DNA of 64,000 bases, from NCBI GenBank assembly GCA_963663475.2, contig CAXXJV010000001.1, positions 1,760,001 through 1,824,000 of the forward strand. The letters are read 5' to 3'. The stretch is from Candidatus Cloacimonadales bacterium (GTDB lineage: Bacteria > Cloacimonadota > Cloacimonadia > Cloacimonadales > JAFGVF01). The notes below the pieces were generated by a model. It was not told where the DNA came from, searched no databases, and saw only the letters and a program-made list of their open reading frames with translations. The translations under genes and the position numbers were made by a program. Below are positions 23,364 to 62,058 of this stretch, piece after piece (the stretch's first letter is position 1; every line of letters starts with the position of its first letter).

Positions 23364-24472
23364 TGGATTTAAAATATCTTAAATATGCTATTAAACTAGC
23401 TGAAAAGGCCAGAGGAAAATCTTCTCCTAATCCCTTTGTAGGTTGTGTAATTGTAAATAATGAAAAAATTGTTGGCCAAGGTTTTACACAACCATGGGGA
23501 CAGGACCATGCCGAAGTTCAAGCTTTGAAAGAAGCTAAGAATAATGCCCAGGGGGCTGATCTTTATGTTACCCTTGAGCCATGTTCCCATTATGGTAAAA
23601 CCCCTCCCTGTGCCAAAGCAATTATAGAAGCTGGAGTGGCAAGAGTTTTTATAGGAATAAAAGACCCAAACCCCCAAGTTTCAGGTAAAGGCATTGCAAT
23701 GCTGGAAGCTGCAGGTATTGAAGTTAAATATAATCTCCTTGTAGCTGAAATTAAACAACAATTAGAATATTTCTTAACCTATATTCAAAATGACAGACCT
23801 TTTGTCTTTATTAAAAGTGCTGTTTCAATCGATGGAAAGATAGCAGATGATCATGGTAACTCCAAGTGGATAACTAACGCAAAATCAAGAGAAAGAGTCC
23901 ACCGCTTAAGAGCAGAAGCTGATGCAATTATTACAGGGGTTGCCACAGTTAACCAAGATGATGCAATGCTTAATGTTAGGTTAAAAGATTATAAGGGTAA
24001 AAACCCTATTAGGATAGTCTTAGACTACGATTTAGAAATAAATCTAACTAGCAAACTTCTTGCTAGCGCAAGGGAAATCAAGACAATTATTTATACAAAT
24101 CATCCTAACCTGCTATCAGAAAAAGCACAGTCTTTAAAAAACCATAATATAGAAATTAGAAGTAGTAAGAGTCAAGCTGGGAAATTTATTATCAAAGATA
24201 TTTTAAAAGAACTTAAAGCTGAATATATTTCTGTAGTTATGGTGGAAGCAGGACCTAGACTTGTCTCATCTTTTGTTAAAGAAAATCTGGTAGATAAACT
24301 CTATTACTTTATTGCTCCATGTCTGATCGGAGGTGGAAATTCTGCTTTTAAGGATATTGGGGTTGCCAATATTTCTGCAAAAAAAGAGCTAAACTTATTC
24401 TCTTCTGAAATTATTGATGGAGACATACTTTTGGTTTATTACTTTAATAAGAATAAGCTAGTAGAGCTTTAA
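23363..24472 (+). CDS. ribD: Riboflavin biosynthesis deaminase/reductase RibD
   Basis: PNPFVG, HAE, VTLEPCSHYGKTPPC, SIDGKIA and VEAG motifs. Confidence 0.95.
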   Translation: MDLKYLKYAIKLAEKARGKSSPNPFVGCVIVNNEKIVGQGFTQPWGQDHAEVQALKEAKNNAQGADLYVTLEPCSHYGKTPPCAKAIIEAGVARVFIGIKDPNPQVSGKGIAMLEAAGIEVKYNLLVAEIKQQLEYFLTYIQNDRPFVFIKSAVSIDGKIADDHGNSKWITNAKSRERVHRLRAEADAIITGVATVNQDDAMLNVRLKDYKGKNPIRIVLDYDLEINLTSKLLASAREIKTIIYTNHPNLLSEKAQSLKNHNIEIRSSKSQAGKFIIKDILKELKAEYISVVMVEAGPRLVSSFVKENLVDKLYYFIAPCLIGGGNSAFKDIGVANISAKKELNLFSSEIIDGDILLVYYFNKNKLVEL

Positions 24473-24610
24473 AACAGCACTATATTCTTCTGCAAAAGTA
24501 AGATCCATAGTTTCTCCGAATATATAAAAAATATGCGTCCAAATTCTGTAAGCTAATATGCTAAAATAATCTGCACTCTTCAATAAAGTTCTACTAGACT
24601 ATCTGGTCTG
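24444..24610 (+). repeat. Element D (~170 bp, terminal inverted repeats), filling the gap between two convergent genes
   Basis: Interior near-identical to 49696-49865 and 59738-59906. The ribD and SpoIID stop codons lie within its ends. Confidence 0.85.
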
Positions 24611-49365: not shown

Positions 49366-49936
49366 TTTAACCGTAATGGCGCAGTAGAACTTTGATGAAG
49401 AGTGCTAAAAGAAGATAGTGCTATTCGCAAAGATCTACTGCATTAAACTATTCATCCCCTTTTGGGATTCAAGACTTATCCCTGACTTGAACTTGAGCCT
49501 GCTTTTTGTTGGAGACCAGACTTCCTCAGCCGTAGGCAAGGGACTTCGGGTGAAGAGTGTCGGAAGTCGCTACTCCGTGAGCAAGTCTCGTCACTCTTCA
49601 TATAATCTTACTTGTAACTTTCTATTATTCAAGCAATATGCTATAATGAAAGTCTCTTATTTACCAGCAGACTTGAACAAGAGCCATTAATTAAGTTAAA
49701 CCCAAATAATGCAATAGATCTTTGTGAATAGCACTATATTCTTCTGCAAAAGTAACTTCCATAATTTCTCCGAATATATAAAATATATGCGTCAAAATTC
49801 TGTAAGCTATTTTGCTAGAATAATCTGCACTCTTCACTAAAGCTCTACTACACTATCTGGGTTAAAATATAAATAAAGGGACACATTCGATTGTGTCCCT
49901 ATTTATGTTTGAGTTTATTATCCTTTAACCCAGATA
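49366..49936. repeat. Repeat mosaic: short element D (49366-49447, -), repeat B (49513-49596), full element D (49696-49865), D half-end (49924-49936)
   Basis: Direct sequence matches to copies elsewhere in the window. Confidence 0.8.
49870..49906. terminator. Stem-loop, probable terminator of the LruC gene
   Basis: ATAAATAAAGGGACAC...GTGTCCCTATTTAT. Confidence 0.6.
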
Positions 49937-51823: not shown

Positions 51824-51912
51824 GTTAAGCTAAGTAGTGCACTAGGATTTTAGGAAGGTATGCAGAAGAATATTCTGCTATTCACAAAAGCCTAATATAC
51901 TATTTGAATTAA
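51824..51912 (-). repeat. Degenerate internally deleted element D just upstream of the LruC gene
   Basis: Minus strand reads ttaattcaaatagt...tttgtgaatagcagaatattcttctgca...gcactacttagcttaa. Confidence 0.6.
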
Positions 51913-56216: not shown

Positions 56217-58055
56217 CTAAAACCCTATAATTTTTCTTGTAGATTTATCGAAGGCACTATTCATTTCAAGATTACAGTACTTTTCTAAATCAGCTTGTGT
56301 CAGTAAAGCTACCTCTTTTGATGCTGCTTGAGTACAAGCATTTTTTATAACAACATCGATTTGTCCTCCTGTCAGATTATAATTATTCGCTAGATAAATC
56401 AAATCAATATCTTCATATCCTGGAATGATCTTGGGAAGTTTGGATTTCCATAATTTTAATCTTTCGTTTGCTGTTGGTAATGGTAACTGAAATTTAAGGT
56501 GAAATCTTCTACTAAAGGCTTCATCAAGATTATCTACTAGATTAGTAGTAGCTATTAAAAAGCCATCAAGGTTTTCGAAAGATTCCAAGAATAAGTTTTG
56601 CATAGAATTAAGCATGTTCTCAACAGGATTTCCAGACTTACTATTTCTTTTAGTTAAAAATTGATCTGCTTCATTAAGCAGTAATACAGGAGGATTTTCA
56701 ACTTTTCTGACTATTTTCTCATAAGTAGTAAACAAACGTTTAATATTCTTTTCACTCTCTCCTACCCATTTAGATTTTAGTTTGCTTATATCAGTTACTA
56801 ATAAGTATTTACCTAAATAATTTGCTATTACTCCTGCCGTAAATGTTTTGCCTGTACCAGGCTGTCCGTAAAAGAGCATCAACAGACTTTGTCTATGCAT
56901 TTTATCATCTCCAAGCAAATTAGCAGGTTTTTCTAACAGGCCCCATGATTGCATTGTGGAACTAACTGTTTGGTCATATAGTTTAAGAGATGTTTTAATA
57001 GTATTCTTCATATCTAAAGGAAGAATTAGTTGTTCAAATGTCTGTGTAGGTTTTATTAAGGTAAATATATTATCACTTTCTATGATTTGTTTTATTTTAT
57101 CTTCATCAGTCACAGGCTCTTTATTGAAAATTCTATTCATGATATCTGTTGAAATTTTAATATCTATGTCATCTGAAATAAGTGATGAGCTTTCTGTAAA
57201 TTCAATTAATCTGCTTTTAGCTAAGTGTCCCTTTGGGTCAAGATATTGTTTATTAGTAAATATTTCTTTTTGATCTATGCTAATAAGCTCAACAATATCC
57301 TTAGTATAAAATATTTCATCCTCTAATTTTGTTTTTACAAGATACATAAGAATTATTTTCTCTTTTGTATTTAAATTAAATTCTTCACTAAGAGTATCAA
57401 ATGCAAATGTCTGATTGGATAATTTCAATCTATTGTTTATTTTAATTTTCCAGTTAAAGACCTTTAAGTAAGCTTGAGCCGTATAAGAAGATAAGATTTT
57501 GTTTTTACATGTAGAACATGACTTCTCGTTTTTAAAATTGTTGAGGTATTCAAGATAAGAGAACCAATCACTAAGATATTCTAGGTTGTTCTCATAAGGA
57601 ATGTTACTATCTACTTGCTTGATTTTCTTTTCTCCAAAAAGTAGCTGTATAAAATCTCTATGAAATTCAATCTTACAAGTTATTAGTTCACTCTTTTTAT
57701 AATTTATATATATATTTTCATCTTCTAACCAATTATCCAAGATTATTACTTCTTTAATAGAAGAGTATAGAATATCTTTTTTTAGTAAAGTAATTATATT
57801 ACCTAAAGAATCTAGTTGTTCACCTTGAGATGTGATAAATTTTGATAAAATACTAAAAATGTCTGTTGTAGTAGTATTTTTCTCAATTACTTCAATCCAC
57901 ATACATGCTATAAATTTAATATCAAAACTGCTTAAACTGTAAAGTTTGATTTCATCTAAGTTAATAAAATTATCTATCAAAGAATCCAAATCAGTTTTAT
58001 CTTCTTGTAAACATATCAAATCTCCAATTTCAGCCAAGTATTTGTAAGCTCTCAT
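56217..58055 (-). CDS. AAA+ ATPase with large N-terminal domain
   Basis: FYGQPGTGKT, SKWVGESEKN, LLNEAD and ATTNL..NLDEAFSRRF motifs. Likely start is ATG 58055 after AGAGGA. Confidence 0.85.
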   Translation of the reverse strand: MRAYKYLAEIGDLICLQEDKTDLDSLIDNFINLDEIKLYSLSSFDIKFIACMWIEVIEKNTTTTDIFSILSKFITSQGEQLDSLGNIITLLKKDILYSSIKEVIILDNWLEDENIYINYKKSELITCKIEFHRDFIQLLFGEKKIKQVDSNIPYENNLEYLSDWFSYLEYLNNFKNEKSCSTCKNKILSSYTAQAYLKVFNWKIKINNRLKLSNQTFAFDTLSEEFNLNTKEKIILMYLVKTKLEDEIFYTKDIVELISIDQKEIFTNKQYLDPKGHLAKSRLIEFTESSSLISDDIDIKISTDIMNRIFNKEPVTDEDKIKQIIESDNIFTLIKPTQTFEQLILPLDMKNTIKTSLKLYDQTVSSTMQSWGLLEKPANLLGDDKMHRQSLLMLFYGQPGTGKTFTAGVIANYLGKYLLVTDISKLKSKWVGESEKNIKRLFTTYEKIVRKVENPPVLLLNEADQFLTKRNSKSGNPVENMLNSMQNLFLESFENLDGFLIATTNLVDNLDEAFSRRFHLKFQLPLPTANERLKLWKSKLPKIIPGYEDIDLIYLANNYNLTGGQIDVVIKNACTQAASKEVALLTQADLEKYCNLEMNSAFDKSTRKIIGF

Positions 58056-58297
58056 AAAAAAATCCTCTCTGAGTTTTTTTTTATTATAAGAGATTAATAG
58101 AAAAAGTAACAAAAAATTTTGCATTTTTATGATTTAGTTCAATTTCAATAGTGCTTTAGAGTATTTTTGGGATACAAAGCGTGAAGAAACAGCTCAAATA
58201 AAAAAATTAATATGTCGCCCCTCCAGGGCTCACTTTTACTTACATTTTTTGGAGTGTCTTGCGAGCATTCCTTATTATATGGCATCCCTTCGGGATA

Positions 58298-58393
58298 CAG
58301 AGTGTTGACAAAGTCAACTTTTCGATTTTATATGGAGTGGAAGCATCCTTGCTTCCACATAAGAATCTGAGACCATCTCGGTATCAGTCCATA
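58298..58393. repeat. 23-bp end motif followed by a head-to-head doublet of two different REP-like hairpins
   Basis: CAGAGTGTTGACAAAGTCAACTT; GGAGTGGAAGCATCCTTGCTTCCAC (58334-58358); inverted CTGAGACC unit (58366-58390). Confidence 0.75.
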
Positions 58394-58423
58394 CTTTTTA
58401 TTAAACCCTTACTTTCCTTGTAG

Positions 58424-58502
58424 CATCCTTAATCCTTCCTTTACAGTCTTTCGATGAAACTGGGACTTTCATCGAAAGACTGTAAAGGAAGGATTAAGGA
58501 TG
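58424..58502. repeat. Perfect 36-bp inverted repeat with 7-nt loop
   Basis: 58424-58459 is the exact reverse complement of 58467-58502. Confidence 0.95.
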
Positions 58503-58527
58503 ATTGCACTTAGTTTATTCAAAATAA

Positions 58528-58558
58528 AACCCGAACAATGTTTGAATTGCTCGGGTTT
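58528..58558 (-). terminator. Probable intrinsic terminator of the YitT gene
   Basis: AACCCGAACAAT...ATTGCTCGGGTT stem, followed on the minus strand by TTTATTTT. Confidence 0.6.
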
Positions 58559-58580
58559 AAGGAGGATATTATGAAAAAAA

Positions 58581-59573
58581 TTATTTTCTTTTAGCAGAAT
58601 CTAGTTCTGCCTGTATTTGTTCTATACTTTTATTATCTTGCAGGTTTAGCTGTCTGCTTTTAAATCCATAACCCATAACATCATAGACATCGTTAAGAAT
58701 AACGAATGAGTTTGGATCAATATTTTTTACTAAGTCTGTTAAAGGACCTACTTGGCGTCTATTACAGACACATAGTAGAACGTTTAGCTCTCTTCCGCTC
58801 CAGCCTGATTGGGCTTTAAACATGGTTACACCACGATTAAGTCTTTTATAAATTTCATTCTTTATCTCAATTGCTTCTGTAGAGATAATATAGACGCCCT
58901 TGATATAGGGAAGACCTTCACTAGCAATATCTGTAATCTTGGTTGAAATGAAGAGGTTTATATAGGCCCAGATTAATAATTTGATATCTTGGAAGGTTAT
59001 ACAAACTGATAAGATTATTAAAGTTTCAATAACCCAATAAGCTGAACCAACTGAAATACCTGTTTTCTGTTTTACCAGTGCTACAGGGATATCTGTTCCT
59101 CCGGTGGAACCTCTAAATCTAAAGATGATTCCTAAACCAAGTCCTAACATTACTGAACCAGCAATAGCTGAAAGATACATTTCATCAGGAGAAAGCATTG
59201 CTAATACTTCTTTTCCCTTGAAGAGATGTGTATAGGGCTCAAGTGAGCTTATTAAACCAATTTTATGTAAAGTTACAGGACTAACAGCATCGATCATGAG
59301 AGCGGACACTATCATTCCAAATATTGATCTAGACCCAAAAGTTTTTCCTATCATCAAAAAACTAATTATGAAAAGGGGAAAATTCATACTCAAGGAGATT
59401 ATACCCACTGGCAAATCAAAAAAGTGATTAAGAATCTGGGCTATACCCCCAACTCCTCCTGGTGACATTTGGTATGGCACTAAAAACCAAGAGTAGCCTA
59501 TACCATAAAAAATGCTACCAACAATTATTCCTAAGATTTGCTTATAGTCTAAGGCTTCTAAAGCTTTTTTCAT
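58581..59573 (-). CDS. YitT family membrane protein
   Basis: PGGVGGIA, NFPLF, GSTGGTDI, RGVT and IDPNSFV...VMGYGF motifs. Likely start is ATG 59573 after GAGGA. Confidence 0.9.
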   Translation of the reverse strand: MKKALEALDYKQILGIIVGSIFYGIGYSWFLVPYQMSPGGVGGIAQILNHFFDLPVGIISLSMNFPLFIISFLMIGKTFGSRSIFGMIVSALMIDAVSPVTLHKIGLISSLEPYTHLFKGKEVLAMLSPDEMYLSAIAGSVMLGLGLGIIFRFRGSTGGTDIPVALVKQKTGISVGSAYWVIETLIILSVCITFQDIKLLIWAYINLFISTKITDIASEGLPYIKGVYIISTEAIEIKNEIYKRLNRGVTMFKAQSGWSGRELNVLLCVCNRRQVGPLTDLVKNIDPNSFVILNDVYDVMGYGFKSRQLNLQDNKSIEQIQAELDSAKRK

Positions 59574-59737
59574 GTGTTCCTCTTTATTATTAATATTCTT
59601 TTTCTGCATAAATTTTTGGACTGTGATTATGTCAATATAAATCGTTTTTTTATCAAAATTAATATTTTTTTTCAGCTTTTTTTTAAAAAAAGGACCATTT
59701 TCAGAAAAAGGGACCCTACAAGTAAGTGAAGGGTATG

Positions 59738-59906
59738 TTAAAACCAATAATGCAATAGATCTTTGAGAATAGCACTATATTCTTTTGCAAAAGTAACTTC
59801 CATTATTTCTCCGAATATATAAAATATATGCGTCAAAATTCTGTAAGCTATTTTGCTAAAAGAATTTGCACTCTTCTCTAAAGCTCTATTGCACCATTCG
59901 GGTTAA
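59738..59906 (+). repeat. Element D, full copy
   Basis: Near-identical to 49696-49865, with imperfect TIRs of about 35 bp. Confidence 0.85.
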
Positions 59907-59934
59907 AACCAATAATACAATAGAGGTAAAAAAA

Positions 59935-60096
59935 ATGAAAAAGAACCAACTTTTAGAAATCTTTGATAAGATCAATAATATCTCCCAACAACTAGAACTT
60001 CACAAACAGGAACACAGATATCTCATTTATTATTTAATGTCAATATCAGGCTTAGGAACTATTATTTTAGCTCCTATATTAGTTAATTTCATTTAA
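59935..60096 (+). CDS. Small coiled-coil + C-terminal TM protein (XhlA/holin-like topology)
   Basis: AGAGGT RBS, then ATG 59935. 53 aa with a hydrophobic C-terminus. Confidence 0.55.
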   Translation: MKKNQLLEIFDKINNISQQLELHKQEHRYLIYYLMSISGLGTIILAPILVNFI

Positions 60097-60186
60097 ACCT
60101 AGTTAATGCAATAGACTTTGGTTAGGTATTTTAACCTTTCTCTTAGAATATGTCTGCTAAGGAAGTTACTGCATTATAAAGGTTAA
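60093..60186 (+). repeat. D-related hairpin element (94 bp) with divergent interior
   Basis: Ends are TTAAACC.AGTTAATGCAATAGA and TACTGCATTATAAAGGTTAA. Confidence 0.65.
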
Positions 60187-60202
60187 ACAAAAGGACAAAA
60201 TT

Positions 60203-60418
60203 ATGACAGAAAAAATCAAGAAAGAAGTATTAGCCAATGTTAACAAAGAGAGTGTGGATTTTAATGACGATACAATCGAAATTATCAGCGAGAAACTTAA
60301 CCAACTATTAGATATTCCTTATATAAATGAAGAGCTTGAAGGAATAATAATTAAAGCAGTAGTTAAGATTCTTTATACATTAATCTTCAACTCAGGAAAA
60401 GTTCTTTTTAAGATCTAA
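60203..60418 (+). CDS. Small hypothetical protein
   Basis: AAGGA RBS and a LN..LDIPYINEELE motif. Followed by a terminator. Confidence 0.65.
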   Translation: MTEKIKKEVLANVNKESVDFNDDTIEIISEKLNQLLDIPYINEELEGIIIKAVVKILYTLIFNSGKVLFKI

Positions 60419-60429
60419 ATAACCGAATT

Positions 60430-60464
60430 CTCCCCATTTAAAATCCTCTAAATGGGGAGTTTTA
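60430..60464 (+). terminator. Intrinsic terminator
   Basis: CTCCCCATTTA...TAAATGGGGAG followed by TTTT. Confidence 0.7.
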
Positions 60465-60541
60465 CTTTTCAAAAAACAAAAAGCTTGACCAAGTTAATAA
60501 ACTAATTATTTTATACTGACGATCAAATTGGAGACTTTTGT

Positions 60542-61201
60542 ATGGATTATGAAGCAGTTATTTTTGATTTAGATGGAACACTAGTTAATACTATTAGTGA
60601 TATAGCTAACTCTATGAATAGGGTATTAATAAAAATGGGATTACCAGCTCATGAAATTGCTGAATATTATTATTTTGTGGGAGCAGGACTTAAGGAATTA
60701 TGTAGGAGAGTTTTACCTAAAGACCTACAATCTGAAACTAAAGTTTTAGAGTATAGAGAACTTTTTAATGAAGATTATAATCAAAATTGGCATAATGAAA
60801 CCTATCCATATCCTGGTATTATTGAACTTCTTGAATACCTTCAGCAAAAAAACAAAACTATAGCAATCTTATCTAATAAACCCGACCATTTCTGCAAATT
60901 ATTTGTCCAACATTTCTTTCCAAATATCAATTTTGCTTTAGTCAGAGGAAATCTAGATTCTCTTCCTCCTAAACCTCATCCTGCAGGAGGCATGTATATT
61001 ACAGAAAGCTTAAATCTGGATCCTAAGGATGTCTTATTTGTTGGTGATTCAGACATTGATATGCAAACAGCTGCTAATTGTGGGTTTATTGCTATGGGGG
61101 CAGAATGGGGCTTTCGTAGTCAAGAAGAACTACTTAAAGCAGGAGCTAAACACATATTTTCCAGTCCAAGTCATTTACTAAAATTTTTACAGGAGATATA
61201 A
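60542..61201 (+). CDS. HAD hydrolase (phosphoglycolate phosphatase-like)
   Basis: FDLDGTL, LSNK, KPHP and VGDSDID motifs. Confidence 0.9.
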   Translation: MDYEAVIFDLDGTLVNTISDIANSMNRVLIKMGLPAHEIAEYYYFVGAGLKELCRRVLPKDLQSETKVLEYRELFNEDYNQNWHNETYPYPGIIELLEYLQQKNKTIAILSNKPDHFCKLFVQHFFPNINFALVRGNLDSLPPKPHPAGGMYITESLNLDPKDVLFVGDSDIDMQTAANCGFIAMGAEWGFRSQEELLKAGAKHIFSSPSHLLKFLQEI

Positions 61202-61470
61202 TGAGAATTGACCAAATATTAAATAAACTTTGCTTGATAAAGACACGTTCAATAGCTAATCAAGCTTGCCATAAAGGATTAATCGAAATTAATAATAATC
61301 CTGCTAAAGCTAGCACAAGTGTTAAAGAAAATGATAGAATAGTGATTAAACTTAATGGCTATAAAACTACTATTGTAATTAAAGAGATTCCTAAAGGTAA
61401 TGTCTCTAAAAAAACAGCCCTAGATTATTACGATCTTATAGACAGACAAGCTATTGAAAGTGATTTATAG
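61201..61470 (+). CDS. S4-domain RNA-binding protein (Hsp15/RqcP-like)
   Basis: MRIDQ.L...IKTRS.A..AC..G.I.IN...AKAS..V...D pattern. Confidence 0.85.
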   Translation: MRIDQILNKLCLIKTRSIANQACHKGLIEINNNPAKASTSVKENDRIVIKLNGYKTTIVIKEIPKGNVSKKTALDYYDLIDRQAIESDL

Positions 61471-61483
61471 AAAAGAGGTAAAA

Positions 61484-61789
61484 ATGACAAACGAAGAAAA
61501 ATTAAAATATGCAGAGATGTCGAAAATTATTAAGGCAATGTCTCATCCTACAAGATTATTCATTGTTGATAAACTAAAAGAAAGAAAATACTGTGTTTGC
61601 GAATTAACAGATATGATTGATGCTGATATTTCAACTGTTTCAAGACACCTTACTGTCTTAAAAAAAGCAGGCATCATCTATGATGAAAAAATCAAAAACA
61701 ATGTATATTACGATTTAAGATGTCCATGCATTAGTAGTTTTTACTCTTGTGTGGTTACTATAATTGATATTCAAAAAGAAACAGATTAA
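61484..61789 (+). CDS. ArsR/SmtB family transcriptional regulator
   Basis: KAMSHPTRL, CVCEL and STVSRHL..LK.AG motifs. Confidence 0.88.
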   Translation: MTNEEKLKYAEMSKIIKAMSHPTRLFIVDKLKERKYCVCELTDMIDADISTVSRHLTVLKKAGIIYDEKIKNNVYYDLRCPCISSFYSCVVTIIDIQKETD

Positions 61790-62058
61790 TTCCTTCAGTC
61801 CGAAGTCCCTTACCTAGGGTTGAGGAAGTCTGGTCTACTTATTCAGTTTAACTAAATACTCATCATTCCTTAAAGAATACCGAGAGTATAATAAAAATAA
61901 ATTATATATTGACAATTTTGTACTTGAGAAATAAATGACCTTGTAGATTGATTATTAATTAAAAAAAAACTTTATTTAGATAACATTCAGCGAGGTTTGA
62001 TTACAAGAAAAATCCCTGAAAATTTATGCGTACCATTAACTAAAATGGAGATATTAAA

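Follow-up and report, generated by a model that had tools for sequence, protein, structure and literature searches.

Copies of an abundant miniature transposable element family around a conserved small-protein operon in a Candidatus Cloacimonadales bacterium

When small genes alternate with long hairpin-forming elements in a bacterial genome, do the elements belong to a system that captures genes, or have they merely settled around genes that were always there? The question is raised by one locus in a 64,000-nucleotide stretch of Candidatus Cloacimonadales bacterium DNA (assembly GCA_963663475.2, contig CAXXJV010000001.1, positions 1,760,001 to 1,824,000 of the forward strand), which we call the window and to which all coordinates below refer. 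A first-pass annotation of the letters between 59738 and 60464 described a cassette-like array in which a 53-amino-acid (aa) open reading frame (ORF53) and a 71-aa frame (ORF71) are separated by copies of an inverted hairpin element, named D. The order and the features of this array are real, and both frames, the terminator and the second left end of D are all present where they were placed. However, the reading of the array as gene cassettes fails, and the boundaries of its elements were shifted. Element D belongs to the miniature inverted-repeat transposable elements (MITEs), which are non-autonomous. We are confident that the region is a conserved two-gene small-protein operon that gained three insertions of a single abundant MITE family. 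The locus is thus a small conserved operon surrounded by ordinary selfish DNA, and it does not represent a new system of gene capture.

Element D and its repeat family

The genome that holds the window (3.30 Mb in 2 contigs, 33% G+C, 99.24% complete) carries this family in great numbers. BLASTN searches with the first D element of the locus (D1) and a second window copy at 49697-49866 gave 820 alignments that merge into 378 loci, of which the large contig has 327 and the small contig 51. Profiles built from the copies gave 340 merged loci, which together make up 38,980 bp and 1.18% of the genome. Elements start with CCCAAATAATGCAGTAGA, end with the inverted complement of this sequence and have a duplicated pentamer on either side (88 full-length matches were listed with their flanks). 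A degenerate motif for the terminal 18 nucleotides (nt) has 705 matches when up to 3 substitutions are allowed, and on the smaller contig the real sequence holds 104 matches versus 5 after shuffling. Pairing of left with right ends defined 215 elements, and 87 of these are flanked by perfect 5-bp repeats, with another 37 showing one mismatch, whereas a control shifted by 5 nt gave no perfect 5-bp repeat among the same 215. The duplicated pentamers are AT-rich, with TTTAA and TTAAA found 22 times each, followed by ATTAT (12), ATAAT (8), ATAAA (7), ATTAA (6) and some others. The window itself holds four more copies, at 24452-24606, 49374-49445, 49701-49861 and 51832-51906.

Members of the family are non-coding and palindromic, and they range from 42 to about 250 bp with a mode of 161 bp. 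Paired elements cluster at 160-169 bp (92 elements), 180-199 bp (34) and 40-109 bp (64). The shorter forms belong to a nested series of 42, 50, 66, 80, 93, 105, 123 and 161 bp in which both ends are kept and the tip of the hairpin is lost symmetrically, and most of these short variants are flanked by pentamer repeats that are perfect or nearly so. Longer variants carry an insert of 29 bp or larger, a module of the GTGATACGTAGCTTTAGCGAAGTATTA type. The family therefore has the characters by which MITEs are recognized. Its members are short and non-coding with inverted ends, they are flanked by target duplications, they occur in many copies and they are present or absent at orthologous sites. 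They also have ends and a duplication in common with an element that encodes a transposase, although this last character is found only in a congener.

At the locus in question, D1 is a full-length 160-bp copy on the forward strand (59743-59902) with the identical pentamer TTAAA on its two sides (59738-59742 and 59903-59907). It matches the family profile with an nhmmer E-value of 1.9e-49. Its inverted arms are 27 nt long (59738-59764 and 59880-59906), and the long imperfect hairpin that had been proposed for D elements is strongly predicted here (z-score -5.62; none of 200 shuffled sequences is as stable). The TTAAA target duplications set the true ends of the elements 5 nt inside those first drawn. 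Accordingly, the termini start with CCC rather than ACCC as had been supposed, and the extra A is the last base of the TTAAA duplication. The left terminus of D1 is nevertheless atypical, reading ACCAAT for CCCAAAT, and its closest copies elsewhere in the genome, at 98.1% identity, start with the normal CCCAAAT. The right-hand TTAAA of D1 is common to a solo 17-nt left end on the same strand (59908-59924), a truncated second copy that is fused to the native ribosome-binding site (RBS) of ORF53. Together with the preceding GTTAAA, this solo end forms a 23-nt direct repeat with the left end of D1 (59737-59759 and 59902-59924), 22 of the 23 positions being identical. In a genome of the same genus (G002), GAGGTAAAAAA..ATG stands upstream of ORF53 too, and no element end was found there between the YitT gene that lies upstream and ORF53.

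The third insertion, D3, is a degenerate 85-bp short copy on the forward strand (60098-60182) that lies between ORF53 and ORF71 with perfect TTAAA flanks at 60093-60097 and 60183-60187. Its inverted arms measure 21 nt (60093-60113 and 60167-60187), its left end departs from the 18-nt end consensus at 2 positions, and its fold is weaker than that of D1 (z-score -2.09; 4 of 200 shuffled sequences). The stop codon TAA of ORF53 (60094-60096) had been assigned to the left arm of the element, and it proves to lie inside the duplicated target pentamer. If D3 is deleted together with one TTAAA, the stop of ORF53 is intact and the RBS of ORF71 follows 16 nt downstream. One congener, G001, carries an intact 161-bp copy in the very TTAAA pentamer that holds its ORF53 stop. 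Because the G001 copy is near the consensus and D3 is very degenerate, we interpret the two as independent hits on one hot pentamer. At the same junction, inspection by eye of the spacers of G003 (stretch L027, about 1476-1492) and G006 (stretch L026, about 1440-1456) revealed the left-end-like stretches CCCAATAAGCAAAGAGG and CCAGATAATGCAAGTTG, which adjoin the upstream side of the ORF71 RBS and may be remnants of older MITEs.

On our explanation, the gene/hairpin/gene arrangement arises from target choice. The elements take AT-rich pentamers such as TTAAA, TTTAA and ATAAT as targets and duplicate them. Since a TAA stop codon is part of the preferred TTAAA, D3 landed on the stop of ORF53. Target composition is sufficient to explain such events, as a stop codon falls inside the duplication in 8 of the 87 copies with perfect duplications when 4.6 would be expected from sites with the same pentamers (P 0.086). 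We rejected a genuine enrichment of stop-overlapping insertions, given that this difference is not significant. Moreover, each insertion leaves a preferred target beside itself, such that new copies stack head-to-tail with one pentamer in common, and stacking of this type yields D1 with the truncated second left end behind it. Elsewhere in the genome, 17 junctions have 4-6 nt from the right end of one element to the left end behind it, versus 6 with a spacing of 7-60 nt, which makes the pairing of D1 with the solo end a habit of the family.

Operon conservation and strain variation

If D elements moved genes, then the small genes should come and go with them. The comparison with six congeners (G001 to G006) gives a different picture. 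ORF53 (59935-60096, forward strand), the first gene of the two-gene operon, encodes 53 aa with a hydrophobic C-terminal stretch; it is present as a single copy in this genome and stands at the same position in five of the six congeners, at 41-51% identity. ORF71 (60203-60418, forward strand), the second gene, has its RBS AAGGA at 60191-60195, is likewise single-copy, and has one match in every congener as well as in one sister genus. A gene order of YitT (on the opposite strand), ORF53, ORF71, a HAD-hydrolase gene, an S4-domain gene and an ArsR gene is kept in G002, G003, G005 and G006. The same order holds in G004 with ORF71 and its flanks kept, and no ORF53 was detected there with the ORF53 query; G001 offers a 2.3-kb contig with ORF53, ORF71 and the HAD gene only. 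The frames are intact throughout, at 51-56 aa for ORF53 and 67-73 aa for ORF71. Substitutions fall mainly at third codon positions (431 versus 266 and 120 at the other two for ORF53; 861 versus 520 and 350 for ORF71). As judged from this conservation, ORF53 and ORF71 are native, protein-conserved genes and not cassettes. Neither matches a Pfam family, and a protein-atlas search with the small proteins returned unnamed clusters only (at 0.91, with low recognition).

In contrast to the genes, the MITE content of the locus differs from species to species. No D ends occur at the locus in G004, G005 or G006; G003 has one MITE beside the YitT start; G002 has two between ORF71 and the HAD gene; and G001 has several. 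At the junction of ORF53 and ORF71, no match to the end motif with up to 3 substitutions exists in G002, G003, G005 or G006. Thus the small ORFs are syntenic in relatives that lack D, which is an outcome that the first-pass annotation had named as contrary to its cassette reading.

Beyond the locus, the family is concentrated in this lineage. A DNA search with the 161-bp element found it in 9 of 41 genomes, namely this one, five of the six congeners, one sister genus and two marginal genomes that each have a single match with an E-value of about 3e-4. In a collection of species representatives, the exact 18-nt end occurs in at least 118 stretches, and among the matches listed 72 of 80 belong to Candidatus Cloacimonadota or Cloacimonadales, with 8 single matches in other taxa. 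Copies in G006 (for example G006:C1:972656-972816) are 98-99% identical to the window copy at 49701-49861. The orthologous proteins of the locus are 45-93% identical between the two genomes, and neither genome has an IS1380-like transposase of the type discussed below. The high identity of the G006 MITEs points to either a recent burst or a horizontal spread, caused by a driver that would since have been lost.

Strains of the same species offer a still more direct comparison. The stretch or part of it is present in 20 public runs, none of them listed as RNA, and we compared contigs from four of these (X5 to X8), which come from four different metagenome studies. In each of the four, a contig bridges a 165-bp skip that is exactly D1 plus one TTAAA (59752 to 59918 in X5, X6 and X7; 59736 to 59902 in X8). 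The alleles that lack D1 retain a single TTAAA followed by ACCAATAAT[G/A]CAATAGA and GGTAAAAAAAATG, with G at the variable position in X5-X7 and A in X8. Contigs of all four runs extend over D3. Both ORFs and their flanks are covered at 98-99% identity in X5, X6 and X8, and the pieces from X7 end at 60283 and resume at 60543. A comparison of strains for the two small ORFs at D boundaries had been proposed as a check on cassette movement, and it is the transposon D1, not the ORFs, that varies. Since the single left end is kept in strains without D1, the 17-nt solo left end is older than the split of these strains.

A candidate driver and the alternatives

A MITE family depends on a transposase encoded elsewhere, and the search for one bounded by the same ends succeeded in a congener but not in this genome. 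The IS1380 transposase model has no match here. However, among 60 relatives searched, G002 gave seven matches of 175.9 bits to this model. These lie in an insertion sequence of which six copies are 1694 bp long and one is 1696 bp, and five of the six copies compared with the first are identical to it. Its termini, CCCAAATAATGCATTAGG and CCCAAATAATGCAGTAAA, have 16 and 17 of the 18 nt of the MITE end, and six of the seven copies are flanked by perfect duplications of TTTAA or TTAAA. The seventh copy (stretch L043) lies head-to-tail beside a MITE with which it shares TTTAA, and its right flank does not match; it may represent an insertion into a resident duplication followed by rearrangement. 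The transposase is a single 469-aa DDE frame that covers positions 1-416 of the 419 in model NF033539 and clears the PF13701 cut-off of 34.7 bits with a score of 90.9, whereas the next-best family, IS1634, reaches 57.5 bits. No solved structure is related to it by sequence. Members of the IS1380 family are about 1.5-2 kb long, with a single ORF, termini that start with CC and a duplication of 4-5 bp. The G002 element fits this description with its 1694 bp, one 469-aa ORF, CCC termini and 5-bp duplication. A split relative of the transposase (77% identity over 307 aa) occurs in G005, with a MITE end beside TTAAA.

Other transposases are less suitable. A transposase on contig 68 of G001 passes the IS1380 cut-off, yet its identity with the G002 partner is as low as 20% and its contig is truncated, and we rejected it as the driver. 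The IS982 family, to which the ACCC termini had been attributed, is not represented, as its transposase model NF033520 has no match in this genome. Four matches to DDE_Tnp_1 are present here, from two IS1182 copies and two IS4 copies. These were rejected because the D ends are not their termini and BLASTP finds no relation between them and the G002 transposase. Given the matching ends and duplication, the MITE copies were most likely moved in trans by an IS1380-like transposase of the G002 type. Since the insertion sequence is absent from this genome, its copies are probably now stranded.

Several points weigh against our explanation and deserve to be considered together. The G002 transposase scores 175.8 bits on NF033539, just below the curated IS1380 cut-off of 180, and the insertion sequence and the MITE are alike only in the terminal 16-17 of 18 nt, with unrelated interiors. 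The cognate transposase is absent from this genome, where its action on the copies is presumed. Our positional statistics, such as the intergenic location of 206 of the 215 paired elements, come from a crude ORF map (minimum length 80 aa) and not from a real annotation. D3 barely matches the profile of short variants (E-value 0.038 and 3.7 bits when the region is searched alone), it is not reported by the full-length family profile at E-values up to 10, and as a BLAST query it matches itself only. It is therefore assigned to the family by its ends, by the TTAAA duplication around it and by the lack of a counterpart in four congeners. Finally, the left terminus ACCAAT of D1 is that of the neighbouring solo end, unlike that of its 98%-identical relatives. 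Simple independent insertion is insufficient to account for two identical aberrant termini, and duplication, deletion or conversion is needed. We infer the order of events at D1, for which two histories are possible. A fresh insertion beside an old remnant might have been followed by conversion between the ends. Alternatively, a tandem pair might have existed, and recombination between the 22-bp repeats might have removed one 165-bp unit of it in the other strains; this history would account for the single left end with G in X5-X7 and A in X8.

Are there other explanations for the arrangement? One that would add to a transposon origin, and not replace it, is that D copies have been co-opted as cis-acting RNA hairpins that affect mRNA stability, processing or the translational coupling of ORF53 and ORF71. 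Roles of this type have been proposed for REP, ERIC and Correia elements. We consider co-option unlikely, even though the hairpins are stable and lie within the transcription unit, D3 is kept in all four strains examined, and a MITE occupies the same ORF53-stop pentamer in two species. D1 is dispensable, in that none of the four other strains has it, and G002, G003, G005 and G006 manage with no recognizable full copy between the ORFs. Furthermore, D copies show no bias in orientation relative to co-directional neighbouring genes across the genome (27 of 48 full-length copies, P 0.47).

There is very little chance that the segment from the solo end at 59908 to the right end of D3 at 60182 is a gene-carrying unit, such as a module like those of ISEcp1 and ISPme1 or a pair of IS982-type MITEs. 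TTAAA flanks this segment on both sides, and passages of one published account (PMC9330008) report that the IS1380 members ISPme1 and ISEcp1 mobilize neighbouring DNA by misrecognizing sequences that resemble their ends. This behaviour is the closest known basis for the idea of passenger genes, but our data do not support that idea. However, D1 and D3 already explain both TTAAA pentamers as their own target duplications, and only one other target is as common as TTAAA (22 of 87). ORF53, a single-copy gene with a constant place in five of six congeners, is not bracketed by D ends in G002, G003, G005 or G006. Nor does the genome offer parallels, as none of 24 left-right end pairs at distances of 200-6000 bp has matching flanks, and none of 136 good solo ends (with at most 2 mismatches) runs into an RBS and the start of an ORF of at least 40 aa. 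With no IS982 transposase in the genome, what survives from the proposal of an IS982-like MITE able to move passengers is the MITE itself; its partner is IS1380-like and no movement of passengers was seen.

We can dismiss almost entirely the remaining proposal, in which D elements are attC-like sites of an integron-like system lacking an adjacent integrase, with ORF53 and ORF71 as its mobile cassettes, because its attractions (the gene/hairpin/gene geometry, the short untranslated spacers, the imperfect hairpins and a right boundary of D3, GTTAAAC, that fits GTTRRRY) are outweighed on every point that would distinguish it. True attC sites carry the core sites RYYYAAC and GTTRRRY at their two boundaries. 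Both are present in none of the 215 paired elements, with one found in 26 and the other in 22, and a fixed orientation is absent as noted above. No integron integrase was identified by the scan with TIGR02249, which covered three of the four tyrosine-recombinase matches, the other being a 120-aa open-frame fragment. Two of the three are full-length and XerD/XerC-like (318 and 306 bits) and reach 130.4 and 113.7 bits on TIGR02249 against its cut-off of 265, while the third, of 199 aa, scores 30.7 bits. Target-site duplications around the elements, single-copy ORFs that are syntenic in congeners without D, and the variation among strains of D1 but not of the ORFs all speak against cassettes. The first-pass annotation had listed three findings that would count against its own proposal, and all three were obtained: D copies are placed without orientation bias relative to genes, the small ORFs are syntenic without D, and the G002 insertion sequence with the same termini and duplications accounts for the copies as MITEs.

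Neighbouring features and known systems

Reading from 59000 to 61200, the region consists of the start of the minus-strand YitT gene, an AT-rich spacer, D1, the second left end, an RBS, ORF53, D3, another RBS, ORF71, a terminator and then the HAD-hydrolase gene. The YitT gene encodes a YitT-family membrane protein with the Pfam domains PF02588 and PF10035. Between it and D1 lies a motif recognized by eye on the forward strand (59691-59733), GGACC..TTTTC.GAAAAAG.GGACCCTA..AGTGAAGGG, that is native to the small operon. It recurs as GGACC..TTTTC.GAAAAAG.GGACCCTATA..AGTGAAGG upstream of the operon in all seven genomes of the genus (congener stretches L026-L031), where it precedes ORF53 at the equivalent position, or ORF71 in the case of G004. 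It may be a promoter or an operator. An extra 187 nt, made up of D1 and the solo end, lie between this motif and the RBS in this genome.

Downstream of ORF71, a terminator scan located an intrinsic terminator on the forward strand (60430-60459, or 60430-60469 in its wider extent) with an 11-bp stem and a T tract (z-score -5.38), and relatives have different, unrelated hairpins at this position. The sequence TAACCGAAT had been taken for half of a D end here. By our reading it has only about 6 nt in common with the end consensus, and the profile search reported no match at this place. A half-end is thus not supported, and the terminator is not a MITE end.

The window also contains a second abundant repeat family. 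An 81-bp near-perfect palindrome at 58424-58504, between an AAA+ ATPase gene and the YitT gene, gave 190 BLAST alignments at about 97 distinct places in the genome, many of them 98-100% identical. An Rfam scan of 58000-62000 returned seven weak matches, all within 58273-58627 and below their gathering scores, with none on D1 or D3. The weak miRNA-like matches among them are due to this palindrome.

What, then, is the value of such a locus? It documents, for a lineage of uncultured Cloacimonadota, a very abundant MITE family that takes up about 1.2% of the genome, that shows a gain or loss among environmental strains and whose likely driver resides in a sister species. Our literature search found no published account of a Cloacimonadota MITE family or of an IS1380-linked driver for one. 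The finding opens no new mechanism. It does offer a caution for annotation, in that a target such as TTAAA that contains a stop codon, combined with reinsertion beside an element's own duplications, mimics integron cassette arrays.

The likeness to integron attC arrays is indeed superficial, and it extends only to the succession of a small ORF, an imperfect hairpin and the next ORF. D elements differ from attC sites in lacking an integrase, core sites and a fixed orientation, in having target duplications, and in standing beside ORFs that are not variable. D elements are comparable with bacterial palindromic MITEs such as the Correia (NEMIS) elements of Neisseria, ERIC and RUP. These too are short and non-coding with inverted ends, number hundreds of intergenic copies, form hairpins, exist as size variants and are polymorphic in presence or absence among strains. 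The difference is that D is another sequence family with another presumed transposase.

A comparison with the eukaryotic piggyBac transposons is more speculative. Passages in one study (PMC10813416) place IS1380 transposases as the prokaryotic outgroup in piggyBac trees. The target of the D family resembles TTAA, and the alleles that lack D1 keep exactly one TTAAA, as seamless excision would leave. However, the D duplication is 5 bp and not 4, and these alleles fit three histories: D1 never inserted, it was excised seamlessly, or it was deleted between the 22-bp repeats. It is improbable, in our opinion, that the D family is a bacterial counterpart of piggyBac, whose IS1380-like transposase would target AT-rich pentamers beside resident ends, build head-to-tail arrays with one pentamer in common and excise copies seamlessly, and whose hairpins within the ORF53-ORF71 operon would have been co-opted to tune its expression. 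If this were true, the exact absence of the 165 bp of D1 in four strains would reflect ongoing excision and reinsertion.

The closest known relatives are found in the IS1380 family, exemplified by ISEcp1 and ISPme1. The G002 element is alike in its size, in its CC ends and in its 5-bp duplications, and IS1380 is the best model for its DDE transposase, at a score just short of the curated cut-off. That element and the D family agree in 16-17 of the 18 terminal nt and in the duplication. What sets the D family and its G002 partner apart is the marked preference seen here for an AT-rich pentamer as target.

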